Shown one piece after another: positions 29,734-38,994 of a stretch of 64,000 bases of DNA. The DNA is from Trueperaceae bacterium (GTDB lineage: Bacteria > Deinococcota > Deinococci > Deinococcales > Trueperaceae): the NCBI GenBank assembly GCA_965213705.1, contig OZ243913.1:2432001-2496000 (forward strand). The letters run 5' to 3'. Under the pieces are notes generated by a model that saw only the letters and a program-made list of their open reading frames with translations, was not told the DNA's origin and did not search any database. The stretch's first letter is position 1. Each line of letters begins with the position of its first letter. The translations under genes and the position numbers were made by a program.

Positions 29734-29780
29734 GGAACAAAAATTGCACAAACAAGTTCATCGTGAAAGTTCTCACTTAA
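29734..29780 (-). repeat. Dispersed polar 47-bp site, copy 3 (just upstream of the smc promoter)
   Basis: - strand TTAAGTG-agaac-TTTCAC-gatgaacttgttt-GTGCAA-tttttgttcc. Confidence 0.78.
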
Positions 29781-29813
29781 GCACGCCTTCAACCTCTTGA
29801 GGTAGACTTTATC

Positions 29814-32800
29814 GTGCAGCTGACCTCGTTGACGTTACAGGGTTTCAAAAGTTTCGGTGACCGGACGGTGCTGACGTTTGCGCCCGGCGTGACAGCCGTC
29901 GTCGGGCCGAACGGGTCGGGCAAGTCCAACCTGATAGAGGCCCTGCGCTGGGCGACGGGTGGCGGCCGAGCGAGCAGCTACCGGGCGGACGAGAAGACCG
30001 ACCTGATTTTTCACGGGGCGAGCGGCAAGCGGAGCGTCAGCTACGCCGAAGTGGGTCTCAGTTTGCGCGACGGCGCGCGCAGCCACCACGTGGTGCGCAA
30101 CTTGTTCCGGGACGGCTCGTCCAAGCTCAAACTGAACGGTCGCGCGGCCAGGTTTGTCGACGTCGAGGAGGTTTTGGGGGGCAGCGGGCTCGGGCGCGGC
30201 AGCTTGGCCGTCATCGGCCAGGGCGAGGTCGGCGGGGTCTTGATGGCGGGTCCGGAAAAGTTGCTCGAGTACGTGGCCGAAGCCGCCGGGGTCGCCAAAC
30301 TCAGCGGCCGCCGCGACCTCAGCCTGGCCCGGCTGGACACCGCGCACGCTCACCTGTTGCGCTTGGCCGACCGTGAAGAGGTGTTGGCCCTCGAGGTGAG
30401 TGCCCTCGCCGAAGAGGCCGAGCAAGCCGCGTGCTATGTGGCGCTGAACGCCGAAGCGTTGCGTTTGCGCTACACCTACGCGGCCGTCCGAGTGGGGAGT
30501 TTGCAGGCGGAGGTCGCGCAGCTGACAGCGCAGCAAGACGACCTGACGGCGACCCTGACGGCAGGTCGGCGGGCCTTGAAAGACCTGCAGGGCGCGTGGG
30601 GCGAGGCGAGAAGTCGCGCTGCCCGGCTCGAGACCCACTACCGCGACTTAGCGACCGAAGCCGAAGCGCGCCGCGGCGACTTGCGCGTGGCCGAGGAGCG
30701 CCTGCAGGGACTGCGGGCGCGCGCCACCGCGGCGACGCGCGAACGGGACGCAGTGACCGAAGAAATGACCCGGCTCGCCACGCTGAGCGCTCCCGTCGCG
30801 CCCGACCTAAACTTGGCCGACGTGAAGACGGCCGCCCGGCACGCCGAAGAAGCGCACGAGGCGTTGGCGCGCGACCTTGCCACAGCCGAGGCCGACGAGC
30901 AAAACGCGCTGCGCCGCTTGGAGGCGCAGCGCTTGGAGCAACGGCGCGAGGAGCAGGCTTCAGCGAGCCACCGCGCACGCGAGGTCCAACTGCTGGCACA
31001 ACGCGCCGACCTGCAAGCGCGCGCGGCGGCTGTTCGGCTGCCTGTCGACGACGTGGGCGCGCTGCGCGAGGACTTAGAAATTGCCAGCCGACTCTACGAC
31101 CTCGCCAAACGCCGCCAGGCCGAAGCTATCGCGGCCGTCACGGCCCAGCAGGGCGTCCACGCTCGAGCCGCGGCGGAAGCGGCGGCGCTGGCGCGTTCAG
31201 TTGAACGCGCCAGCGCCGCGCTCAAGGCCCGCCGCGGGTTCGCACAGGGCCCCAAACACGCGCTCACCGCCAACCTGCCAGGCGTCTTCGGGGCCGTCGC
31301 CGACCTCGTTCGGGTGCCCGAGCCGTACCGCGTCGCCCTCGCCAGCGCGCTGGGTCGGCGGGTCGAGTACGTCGTCGTCGACACTGCCGACACGGCGCAA
31401 ACGGTTCTCTCTTACGTCAAACAGCGCGGCGGCTGGGTGACCGTGTTGCCGCTCGACCTGGTCGCGGGCAAACCCGGTACGTTGCCGCCGGGCGTCAAGA
31501 ACGCACCCGGCGTCGTCGGGCTCGCCACCGACCTCGTCGAGGTCGGTGAGGCGTTTCGGGGTGTTTTCTATCAACTTTTGGGTACGACGACGCTCGTTGA
31601 AACCTTACAAGTGGGTGTCACTTTGGCGAAAACGCAGCGCACCCGGCCGCGCTTAGTCAGTTTGGCGGGCGACGTCGTCGAGAGTTACGGTGCCTTGTCG
31701 GGCGGTCAAAGCCGCGTCGCGGACTCGGTGCTGGGTCTCGCCGCCGAGGTGGAGGAGGCCGAGGCGAGTGCCGAAAAAGCGCAAAGGGGTGCCGCCGAGC
31801 AAGAGGTCAGGCTGCGCGCTTTTCAAGACGCCGCCAAAACCGCCCAAACCGAAACGGCGTCGGCCGCAACCGTCCTGAAAAGCTTGCAAGCTAGGCTCGC
31901 CGCCGTTGAAGAAGCCGTCAACCTGGCTCGCTCGTTGCGTGGGCAGGTGGGTGAGCAGTTGCAAGACGTTGCGGCGCAACTGGAAGCGCTCGAGCCCCCG
32001 CCCGCCCGCCTTGACCGCGCGGGTTTGGTGGCGGCCGAGGCGGAAGCCGTCCAACTTGCCGAACGGGTGCGCGCCTTGCGCGCCGCCGCCACGCAACGCG
32101 CCACCACGTTTCAAGAGGCGCGCCAAACTTTACTGCTCGGCGAGCAGCGCTGGCAACAGTACGCCGAAGCGCAGCGACGGTTCGAAGCGGCCGAGCAGCA
32201 GCGCGCCCGGCTGGCCGAACGGCTCGGCGACTTGCTCACCCTGCAAGGTGACGTTGAACGCGACCTGCAGGCGGCGCACCGGGCGTTTACAACGGCTCAG
32301 GCCGCTCAGCCCAGCGACCTTGAAACCAAAAAAGCCGCCTGGCAAACAACCAAGGCCGAGGCCGACCGTCTCGAGGCCGCCCTGTCGCCCCTGAGCGAGA
32401 GCCAGGCCGGTTACGCCGAAGACTTGGAGCGCGTCAAGGTGTCTTTAGCCCGGCGCGAGGCCGCCCTGGAGCTGGCCCAAGAGGACTTGGCCGGGTTTCC
32501 ACCCGGTTTGGAGCGGTTGGACAGGAGCGCCCGAGCCTGCCGCGAACAACTCACCGAAGTCGAAACCGAGCTGACAGCGCTGGGACCCGTCAACCACCGC
32601 GCCACTCAAGACGTGCAAGACAGCCGCGCACGTCTCGCCGAACTGCAAGCACAACTTGCCGAAGCCCGGCAAGCCGTCGCCGAGTTAAGAGAAGCCTTGG
32701 CGACCCTCGACGCGGAGACGAGTTCGCGCTTGGCGGTGGCGACCGGCGCGTTGCGCCGCAACTTCAAACACTACGTTGGCGAGTTGTTCGGGGCCGAGGC

Positions 32801-33194
32801 CGAAGCGGATGTAGAGACGCTCTACGAAGAGCAGCGCCCGGTGGGCATCCGCATCGCGCTGCAGCCGCCGGGTAAGCAAACGACGGCCCTGAACTTGCTC
32901 TCGGTCGGTGAACGGACGATGGGCGCGCTGGCGTTTTTGTTCTCGCTCATGCAGGGCGACCCCGCGCAACGCCTGCCCCTCGCTGTTTTAGACGAAGTCG
33001 ACGCGCCCCTCGACGAGGCGAACATTCGCCGCTTCTGCGCGTTCTTAGAGCAGCTCGCCAAGCAAGGCACGCAGTTTGTCCTCATCACCCACCAAAAAGC
33101 AACCTTTGAGATTGCCGACGTCCTGTGGGGCGTGACCTCCGACCGGGGGGTCAGCCGGCTGTTTAGCATTCGCCGTGAAGACCCCGTAGCTTAG
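29814..33194 (+). CDS. smc: Chromosome segregation protein SMC
   Basis: [14 protein letters not shown], hinge, coiled coils, LSVGE and LDEVDAPLD. Confidence 0.93.
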
Positions 33195-38000: not shown

Positions 38001-38836
38001 AAAAGTGGGGCACGGCCCAGCGCAGCCAAGCCGCGCTGGGCCAAATGAGCCTGTTCGGCGCCGAGGAGGCGCGACCGCCGTCGTTGAGCCGCGCGGAGAA
38101 ACTGAGCGACTTAGAACTGTTGCGCATGGAAAAAGAGGCGCTGGGCCTCTACATCAGCTCGCACCCGATGCAGAGTTATCCGGGTCTGGTCGAGGCGGCG
38201 AGCTGTCCCGTGGGCGCGGTCGAAGGGTGGTTCCGGGAGCAACCACGCGAAACGATGTACCGGGGCCGAACCAAGGTGGCGCTGGCCGGGATTTTACAAA
38301 ACGTCGTCAAGAAGCCGACCAAAAAGGGCACGATGATGGCCCGCTTCGACCTGGCCGACGAAACCGGCAGCCGCGAAATCGTCGCCTTCAGCCGCACCTA
38401 CGACGACATCGCCGACCTGCTCGCCAACGACGCGCCGGTGGTGCTCATCACCGAGTTGTCCGAAGACGGCGACTCGGTTCGCCTTGTCGCCGACCGGCTC
38501 ATCCGCTGGGACCACAAGGCGAACCTGCCCGAGATGGTGGTGTTACAGTTCGGCCTCGAGACCCTGACTCCCGACCACCTCACCGAACTGCGCTCTTTTT
38601 TGGACGAATACTCCGGCATCACCCCGGTGCGGTTGCGTTTCACCAGCCCGGAGGGCCTCGTCACCTACGACACCGACGGCATTCGCGTCGACAAGGCGCG
38701 TTTGGACGCGCTCAGGGATGTGTGTCCGTGGCTGAAAACGGCGGTCACCCTCGACACCGACAAACTGTTGAACGTTCGGCAAGAGACGCACTACAGCGCC
38801 TCTCCCCCACCGCCAAGCACCGAGGTGCCGTTTTAG
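35096..38836 (+). CDS. dnaE: DNA polymerase III alpha subunit
   Basis: PHP domain HLHQHTAYSLLDG and TDHG; GRGSGAGS, PDIDVDF and GFNKSH motifs. Confidence 0.97.
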   Translation: MAEPALEFAHLHQHTAYSLLDGAARIKDLMKWVKEVSPDKPVLAMTDHGNMHGAVEFYKAAEAQGVKPILGFEAYVTAGSRFEKRRGSSKLDGGYFHLTLLAQNFKGYQNLCKLNSRGWLEGFYGKPRVDHELLREYSEGVIALSGCLGAQVPRTLLDISPEAGEETLQKYLNIYGDRFFIELQDHGIEDQPRLNKMLKVLADKYGLGMVATNDGHYVRKEDARAHEALLAIQTKTVLSDPNRFKFPCDEFYVKTPEEMAAVIPEADYPSALANSMTIADMCDVVLPVGDRRVYQMPELPIPKGRTLAEQLRIQSYQGLLERYEEIDEALYRRYLSMAGTEVPATLEGVLEHLARAGEACQARAKVDGEKYVTYPHLEKLKSSGEFGERALVILERLEYELGLIITMGFPDYLLIVADFINWAKDNGIAVGPGRGSGAGSIVCYALKITNIEPLQYDLLFERFLNPDRVSMPDIDVDFSDTRRGEVIDYVREKYGDSRVAQIATFGTMASKAAIKDAARVLEAPYVDADRVSKLIPVVFGRSTPIARAMEEVPEIKQYYDRGASEFMDVALALEGLTRHASVHAAGVIISREPVQELAPVFRSGDGPIVCQYDMNSVEELGFIKMDFLGLRTLSFIEAAVKIVKESRGVELNPDAFPTDDEKTMDLLSRGEAAGVFQFESPGMVDTLKKLKPRRIQDLIAVSALYRPGPMENIPTYIRRHHGSPEDPYQDFPASREYLESILEETYGIPVYQEQIMKIAQAVAGYSLGEADILRRVMGKKKVAEMEKQRIIFLDGAKAKGIPKDEASRIFDLLEKFANYGFNKSHSAAYGVLSYQTAYLKAHYPVEFAAALLTVERANSDKVAQYAADARQLGVDVLPPDINESRSDFTPVNQVIRFGLYGIKNVGDGAVEHILSERARGGKFKDLWDFCKRVDSGLVNKRALEHLVKAGAFDALGERHVMLHNLEAAQKWGTAQRSQAALGQMSLFGAEEARPPSLSRAEKLSDLELLRMEKEALGLYISSHPMQSYPGLVEAASCPVGAVEGWFREQPRETMYRGRTKVALAGILQNVVKKPTKKGTMMARFDLADETGSREIVAFSRTYDDIADLLANDAPVVLITELSEDGDSVRLVADRLIRWDHKANLPEMVVLQFGLETLTPDHLTELRSFLDEYSGITPVRLRFTSPEGLVTYDTDGIRVDKARLDALRDVCPWLKTAVTLDTDKLLNVRQETHYSASPPPPSTEVPF

Positions 38837-38947
38837 ACCCCGGTTCGATTGGGGTTTACAACGGGTCGGTAAACGTTCCTGCCGAAATGGCCCAAGCAAT
38901 TCGAGTTTTCTTGCAGACGCGCCCATACACACTCCTGCACAGAATCT

Positions 38948-38994
38948 GTAGGTGATATATTTCACAATAGCTTAGCGCGTGAACTTTTTCTTTC
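38948..38994 (+). repeat. Dispersed polar 47-bp site, copy 6
   Basis: GTAGGTG-atata-TTTCAC-aatagcttagcgc-GTGAAC-tttttctttc; between convergent genes. Confidence 0.78.

Follow-up and report, generated by a model that had tools for sequence, protein, structure and literature searches.

The stretch analysed here (the window) comprises 64 kb, positions 2,432,001–2,496,000, of contig C1 (4,246,949 bp, 60.9% GC) of a Trueperaceae genome and carries, between smc and dnaE, the gene of a tyrosine recombinase. This recombinase is conserved and non-mobile and lies at the flip point of a strictly convergent array of polar sites at the replication terminus, an arrangement that is common across Deinococcales. 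We tentatively interpret it, at somewhat less than even confidence, as an Xer-type array of multiple dif-like sites, the polarity of which would be set by FtsK and the recombinase of which would be the single Xer-type enzyme of the order. The layout likely marks an Xer/dif-type terminus system that was not described before. The analysis was computational and based on sequence throughout. The genome under study is designated G000; other G-numbers denote genomes of its relatives, L-numbers fetched loci, and C-numbers contigs.

The sites were located with nhmmer and with R1, a site model derived from sequence only, which was run on the window with filters off. Genome-wide, nine site copies were found in G000, all of them confined to 9% of the genome (2,434,571–2,822,877). 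Four copies in the + orientation (2,434,571; 2,447,089; 2,461,729; 2,465,209) precede the recombinase gene (2,465,362–2,466,414, − strand), and five in the − orientation (2,466,989; 2,470,944; 2,480,983; 2,603,278; 2,822,827) follow it; the orientation switches once, at the recombinase. The next best nhmmer match had an E-value of 0.84 (2,820,612, − strand), and the best one outside the array region had an E-value of 4.1. Local GC content around the copies was 0.40–0.53, and no convincing gene overlapped any of them according to a crude gene caller.

Within the window, R1 detected seven sites with E-values from 1.6e-7 to 3.8e-14, four of them + to the left of the recombinase and three − to the right. 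The + sites were found at 2571–2610 (the outermost left copy, which had no match to the A-tract that begins the site; 27.3 bits, E 1.6e-7), 15090–15143 (40 bits, E 1.6e-11; nhmmer E 1.2e-10), 29729–29783 (43 bits; it ends 31 bp upstream of the smc start codon), and 33209–33263 (41.6 bits; the innermost full left copy, directly after the smc stop codon). The − sites were found at 34989–35045 (42.5 bits; the innermost right copy, upstream of dnaE), 38944–38996 (42 bits; after the dnaE stop codon), and 48983–49037 (48.4 bits). A simple pattern gave six matches in the window vs. 0.65 expected, and six were reached in one of 100 shuffles. A preliminary description of this DNA had placed four sites at 29734, 33213, 34992, and 38948, all correctly, and had taken them to bracket the neighboring genes. 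They rather belong to one terminus-restricted convergent array, which flips at the recombinase and is kept across the order.

R1 matches were present in 29 of 61 Trueperaceae genomes and 19 of 36 genera of this family (E ≤ 0.01), and in 50 of 121 Deinococcales genomes (E ≤ 1e-4). By family, the positive genomes amounted to 7/26 (f1), 23/26 (f2), 1/23 (f3), 9/26 (f4), and 9/19 (f5). Family f2 probably corresponds to Deinococcus, because all 59 plasmid matches of the recombinase protein in PLSDB were from Deinococcus. The array contigs of the relatives had two to nine listed sites each, compared to nine in G000. Convergence was counted on contigs with both orientations in two R1 listings (Trueperaceae and the order), with G049 left out. 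All + sites preceded all − sites in 33 of 33 such contigs, the sole exception being one weak site of G052 (−1,278,590, E 2.7e-4). Since this pattern does not change when a contig is reverse-complemented, the convergence is real. In all cases counted as convergent, the end with the right arm and TCACTT points toward the centre and the A-tract toward the origin.

The array and the recombinase sit at the replication terminus, opposite dnaA. The recombinase was 46.9–50.7% of the replicon length away from dnaA in ten of ten closed replicons belonging to four families (G000, 47.7%; G001 contig C7, 49.7%; G024, 49.98%; G012, 49.3%; G021, 47.3%; G030, 46.9%; G139, 49.5%; G126, 50.4%; G085 contig C1, 47.5%; G084, 50.3%). 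The cumulative GC skew of G000 had its minimum at 0.51 Mb and its maximum at 2.545 Mb, and the polarity of GGGNAGGG peaked at 2.546 Mb. Both maxima were 80 kb from the array centre and ~64 kb past the outermost of the three inner − sites, but the noise of the skew (10-kb standard deviation of 118 vs. a mean of ±32) limits the placement of the terminus to no better than ~100 kb.

A convergent array in this position could also be a replication fork trap, which would be the third and independently evolved Ter system, with the DNA-bound recombinase acting as the polar terminator protein. We consider this rather unlikely. In such a trap, forks would pass from the A-tract side and stall from the TCACTT/right-arm side. 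The layout itself argues for a trap, as two opposed groups of three to five polar sites, dense near the centre and with outliers up to 357 kb away, are centred opposite dnaA, and the central gene stands beside the innermost sites and has a further one near its promoter, as in Tus/Ter and RTP/Ter. Tus/Ter of E. coli and RTP/Ter of B. subtilis share with our array the opposed polar clusters flanking the terminus and the gene of the binder (here a putative one) at the innermost sites. They differ in that the central gene here encodes a catalytically intact recombinase and that neither Tus (PF05472) nor RTP (PF02334) had a match in G000, an absence that counts in favor of an independent trap. According to the excerpted text of PMC10331603, both the Tus and the RTP genes have a ter site in the promoter, polar fork traps are known only as these two systems, and most bacteria are thought to have none. 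The invariant half of our sites faces the centre, like the strong B site of B. subtilis in the same excerpt. A pure barrier, however, needs no catalytic residues, yet these are conserved, and the skew and GGGNAGGG maxima lie beyond the inner − sites, though by less than the noise. Moreover, we know of no tyrosine recombinase that acts as a contrahelicase, which counts against a trap. If a trap did exist, it would have no dedicated terminator protein and would use instead the chromosome's own Xer-type recombinase. A fork trap that arose from such a recombinase on dif-derived polar sites, one system then serving termination and dimer resolution and perhaps also the release of SMC, seems to us just as improbable as the trap on its own.

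Each of the 21 arrays examined had a member of the recombinase family within its flip interval, and this was the only gene common to all these intervals. The arrays comprised seven Trueperaceae loci fetched around recombinase homologues, seven loci fetched by their sites, five further genomes, G029, and G000. Fourteen Trueperaceae loci had been fetched around homologues, and seven of them had convergent sites on both sides; in two of these seven, the flanking matches were weak (L026, E 0.022 and 0.068; L018, + site with E 0.029). Among the seven loci fetched on the site flip alone, all had a homologue in the interval. In the five further genomes, from three other families, the best genome-wide match of the homologue fell within the interval in every case, and likewise in G029. 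In G000, G021, and contig C110 of G017, the recombinase was the sole gene between the innermost sites. The preliminary description would have been refuted by sites in genomes lacking the recombinase; none of the 21 arrays was of this kind. Another refuting case named there, a strain-specific recombinase derived from a mobile element, is not borne out either, as the position is kept across the order. The proposal is thus supported in part, insofar as the enzyme is conserved and non-mobile: an orthologue with 91% identity is present at the equivalent position of the sister species, homologues adjoin smc in 12 of 21 fetched Trueperaceae loci, and the location opposite dnaA is constant.

It is doubtful, on these data, that a separate DNA-binding protein reads the polar sites while the recombinase is merely resident, acting at one site or at an unseen dif. 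Such a protein is suggested by the GTGA-N6-TCAC half of the site, which resembles an operator of the CRP/FNR type, and by genera in which the recombinase occurs without detectable sites; besides, the binding of the recombinase to the sites is argued from gene position and site geometry. The presence of the recombinase as the sole common gene in the 21 flip intervals, and as the sole gene in three, speaks against a separate binder, as do the extra recombinase copies on contigs C110 and C63 of G017, which carry their own flanking convergent sites. Ordinary operators, in addition, are not expected to be restricted to the terminus or to be polar by replichore.

The anatomy of the sites was deduced from an alignment of 25 copies from five genera and the information profile computed from it. 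The footprint is ~44 bp, AT-rich, and asymmetric. It consists of an A-tract (AAACAAAAA), the left arm TTTCACGAGC, a conserved A, four unconserved bases, the right arm TATYGTGAAA with the invariant GTGAA, four further unconserved bases, and TCACTT. Both arms are inverted copies of TTTCACGA, and the asymmetry comes from the flanks. In the information profile, two conserved inverted 10-bp blocks surround four low-information columns, and this two-block geometry supports the assignment of the site as a putative tyrosine recombinase core. Arms around a spacer had already been recognized in the preliminary description, and this part of it agrees with the profile; the 5′ A-tract and the 3′ TCACTT had been overlooked. 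The six 7-bp spacers listed there are the reverse complements of six site centres, and the statement that all spacers differ extends to all seven centres in the window. The centre of the site at 34989 is one base longer than in the other six. The partial site that had been described upstream of the recombinase gene was confirmed as a further, degenerate copy (34488–34530, + strand): on reading the sequence, its A-tract and a TTTTCAC arm are kept, and its right arm has decayed to TTGAG. It abuts the putative recombinase promoter, was below R1 detection at E ≤ 1, and is kept in the sister species G001 (87% over 63 nt).

Recombinase genes between inverted sites also occur in invertible DNA. In the Rci/sfx shufflon of IncI plasmids, one tyrosine recombinase acts on many asymmetric inverted sites with one conserved arm and a 7-bp spacer; the spacers are identical and the segments invertible. 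In our array, by contrast, no two centres in the window are the same, the sites are separated by housekeeping genes, and the contigs gave no sign of inversion. That the recombinase and its nearest sites form a mobile or invertible cassette, either of the shufflon type or in the form of an inverted-end recombinase transposon, the other sites being relics, is very improbable to us. Apart from the position of the gene between inverted sites, it would be in line with the four extra copies on small contigs of G017, three of them full length. It does not agree with a place opposite dnaA that is kept across four families, with the tail-to-tail orientation toward smc in nearly all smc-adjacent loci, with the differing centres, or with the lack of tRNA and mobile-element genes nearby. 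Strand-switch joints were not found in the contigs of one Logan sample, a weak argument because contigs drop rare forms.

The product of the central gene (33362–34414, − strand, 350 aa) is, judging from its family match, residue set, and modelled fold, a catalytically intact tyrosine recombinase. It matched PF00589 only (73.9 bits vs. a cut-off of 27.1). R206, K230, H300, R303, H326, and Y335 were all present, in agreement with the earlier claim that every catalytic motif is kept; among 26 central recombinases, R-K-H-R-Y was conserved in all 26 and the second H in 24. The AlphaFold model (mean predicted local distance difference test score, pLDDT, 86.1) has the two-domain fold of such recombinases, and its best matches in PDB were XerA, Tn1549 Int, and XerH on top, followed by VchIntIA, lambda Int, XerD, and Cre. 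The NCBIfam models for XerC (74.7 vs. 335.15), XerD (51.8 vs. 329.6), XerA (67.7 vs. 220), and XerS (55.5 vs. 267) all scored below cut-off. Canonical XerC/XerD elsewhere in the genome, for which a check had been proposed, were not found in G000: none of seven PF00589 matches reached the cut-off of 330–335, the best one having 147 bits (1.2429 Mb). FtsK with a gamma domain was detected in G000 (81.6 bits).

Single-recombinase Xer systems, namely XerS/difSL of streptococci, XerH/difH of epsilon-proteobacteria, and XerA/dif of archaea, likewise have one recombinase beside its own asymmetric terminus site. Here, too, the XerC/XerD pair is missing, and XerA and XerH are among the best folds; however, the scores are far below the XerS and XerA cut-offs, and in place of one site there are six to nine per chromosome, strictly convergent and with an A-tract and a TCACTT flank. 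With XerCD/dif and FtsK/KOPS (FtsK-orienting polar sequences) of E. coli and B. subtilis, the array shares two inverted arms around a short centre at the terminus as well as the FtsK gamma domain, but there is no paralogue pair, the scores are 52–75 bits vs. 330–335, the sites are multiple, and the arms are unrelated, apart from a presumed loose similarity of TATTGTGAAAT to the XerD arm.

The neighborhood of smc deserves separate consideration. In the window, smc lies at 29814–33194 on the + strand (SMC_N, E 8.8e-47; SMC_hinge, E 4e-26). The 12 smc-adjacent Trueperaceae loci include nine of the 14 fetched around recombinases and three of the seven fetched on the flip, and the homologue also adjoins smc in G030 and G026 of another family. 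The two genes are tail-to-tail in nine of 14 and two of seven loci, respectively, and in G030 and G026, i.e., in 13 of 14 smc-adjacent loci; they are co-directional in G023. Across these loci, the recombinases are only ~33% identical.

This adjacency raises the possibility that the polar sites are SMC-unloading stations similar to the XerD-specific sites of B. subtilis, where the bound recombinase would release Smc-ScpAB arriving from the origin, independently of catalysis. We rate it as unlikely. Unloading of SMC by XerD in the terminus region has been reported (Karaboja 2021, as cited in the partial texts of PMC12322038 and PMC8357415), and this role, together with an smc adjacency that is kept despite the low recombinase identity, is what speaks for such stations. 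As far as the partial texts go, the B. subtilis system has in common with ours several recombinase sites at the terminus, beside the recombination site, and a link to smc (in Trueperaceae); here, however, both arms are present in every site, the array is polar and convergent, and the smc link is gene adjacency only. Adjacency of genes that are not co-transcribed is weak evidence, and in four genomes checked from two other families (G085, G139, G126, and G084), smc is 98–860 kb from the recombinase, with the same array.

In the Xer-type interpretation that we prefer, the recombinase would bind the terminus sites and resolve chromosome dimers there as the single enzyme of this type in the order. 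In favor of it are the position opposite dnaA, the confinement of the sites to the terminus and their convergence, the coupling of gene and array, the retained catalytic residues, which point to selection on catalysis, the recombinase-like site geometry and fold, and the lack of a competing XerC or XerD in G000. Two monomers would occupy the two inverted 10-bp arms (TTTCACGAGC and TATYGTGAAA), and the centre of 4–5 nt would not be read by sequence. Each site would function as a dif-type site whose only recombination partner is the identical copy on the sister chromosome; exchange between different sites, with deletion or inversion as its outcome, would be blocked by their unlike centres. The asymmetric flanks and the convergence could be explained if the bound complex must face machinery travelling from the origin to the terminus. 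On known Xer biology, this machine is most likely FtsK; SMC or the replisome are the alternatives. The degenerate site at the recombinase promoter may let the enzyme set its own level.

Several observations weigh against this interpretation. A single dif suffices for dimer resolution, so that the known function does not account for the number of sites. Sequence scores place the protein as near to phage integrases as to the Xer models (PHROG_1 'integrase', 108 bits). In the tree, the terminus copies form one clade with own_1276k, a paralogue of the terminus recombinase in G000 (1,276,273–1,277,382, 37% identical); a truncated duplicate of this paralogue beside a tRNA 3′ end suggests that it may be a mobile relative with similar DNA specificity. 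The right arm and TCACTT also make up a GTGA-N6-TCAC palindrome that could be read by a CRP-type dimer. Finally, R1 had no match in 17 of 36 Trueperaceae genera, among them G006, G009, G011, and G012, in which the closest recombinase homologues adjoin smc, and none in g26 and g31, two genera of a sister family represented by 21 genomes.

Diverged sites were sought in the high-GC genera that have the recombinase and no R1 match, where a repeat search returned noise only. A core-only hidden Markov model combined with a regular expression gave nothing convincing in G006, G009, G012, and G026; its sole yield was a perfect palindrome, TTCACGAGC-N5-GCTCGTGAA, in G011. In this genome (73% GC, recombinase beside smc, no R1 matches), the arms appear as a perfect palindrome ATGTTCACGAGC-N5-GCTCGTGAACAT at L017:5555–5577 and also as a longer palindrome upstream of the recombinase (L017:8691–8732). 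Neither has the AT-rich polar flanks. Megaplasmid MP1 of D. radiodurans contains a family member, and the sites near it are weak half-sites only.

Literature searches retrieved no published description of such arrays in Deinococcota, and the main text of Kono 2011 does not mention Deinococcus or Thermus. The Xer/dif system of Deinococcus was uncharacterized in 2022, when the paper on D. radiodurans FtsK, in its excerpted text, left the Xer/dif partners open (PMC9764985). The terminus architecture reported here is order-wide and sharply defined, down to the candidate protein and the exact positions of its putative sites, in bacteria that are highly recombinogenic and polyploid, and it includes genera with genetic tools. 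With a defined array, a candidate protein, and tractable genera, dimer resolution, fork arrest, and SMC unloading become directly testable against each other.

Additional recombinases were noted in G000 and in one relative. The most Xer-like recombinase of G000 (1,242,825–1,243,808; 147 bits on both the XerC and XerD models) is far from the terminus. A near-complete look-alike of the polar site (TTCAC-N13-ATGAAATTTATCAC, 1,242,613–1,242,653) lies 175 bp from the 3′ end of its gene, which lends weak support to the Xer-type interpretation; the two possibly constitute a resolution module belonging to an integrated replicon. Own_1276k has a truncated, near-identical second copy (3,382,433–3,383,002) that abuts the 3′ end of a tRNA gene next to a GTGAAATTTAAATCTCAC palindrome. 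Genome G017 has four extra recombinase copies on contigs of 4–35 kb, full-length on C4, C110, and C63 (L024, L026, and L027) and represented by a 52-residue C-terminal fragment on C319. Those on C110 and C63 have their own convergent site pair within 1–3 kb, and two of these sites have a centre one base shorter. These extra copies may be plasmid or secondary-replicon modules.

No tRNA genes were found within the window, and phage, transposon, or integrative and conjugative element families of Pfam were absent from the eight neighboring open reading frames (ORFs) scanned, as had been noticed earlier for the surroundings of the recombinase. An integrase of an integrative element was rejected on the grounds of no tRNA gene in the window, no mobile families in the ORFs scanned, and a position kept across the order. 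An integron was rejected because the sites enclose smc and dnaE and the array extends on both sides of the gene, and a transcription-factor operator because the orientation of the sites follows the chromosome arm and not the neighboring gene.

The gene dnaE (35096–38836, + strand), encoding DNA polymerase III alpha, was identified by DNA_pol3_alpha (E 2.8e-93) and by PHP and finger domains. It is also found in the terminus neighborhood of L018 (G013) and L028 (G052), where it is head-to-head with smc and not beside the recombinase. Its occurrence near the terminus in other genera indicates a loose grouping of terminus genes in Trueperaceae, made up of smc, dnaE, and the recombinase.

A long, perfect G+C-rich hairpin recognized by sequence reading (33294–33349, no strand assigned) separates the convergent smc and recombinase genes and is likely a bidirectional terminator of both. 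The Rfam scan had no match above threshold; the hairpin had only a sub-threshold similarity to the Pseudomonas small RNA P37 (27.8 bits vs. a threshold of 50). A promoter-like site of the recombinase gene (34450–34477, − strand; TTGAAA, 16 nt, TATGAT) was predicted by consensus alone, with 10 of 12 positions matching. The region 34415–35095 has 41% GC in G000. It includes a hypervariable AT-rich segment at the exact flip point (34531–34988, with wider bounds of 34509–35019, no strand assigned), which is replaced in relatives. A 134-aa ORF in this segment had no Pfam or NCBIfam match, and a 341-aa ORF without a Pfam family takes its place in the sister species G001. In a minor co-occurring strain (~5–7% of contig depth), ~680 nt of other sequence are present between the same two sites.

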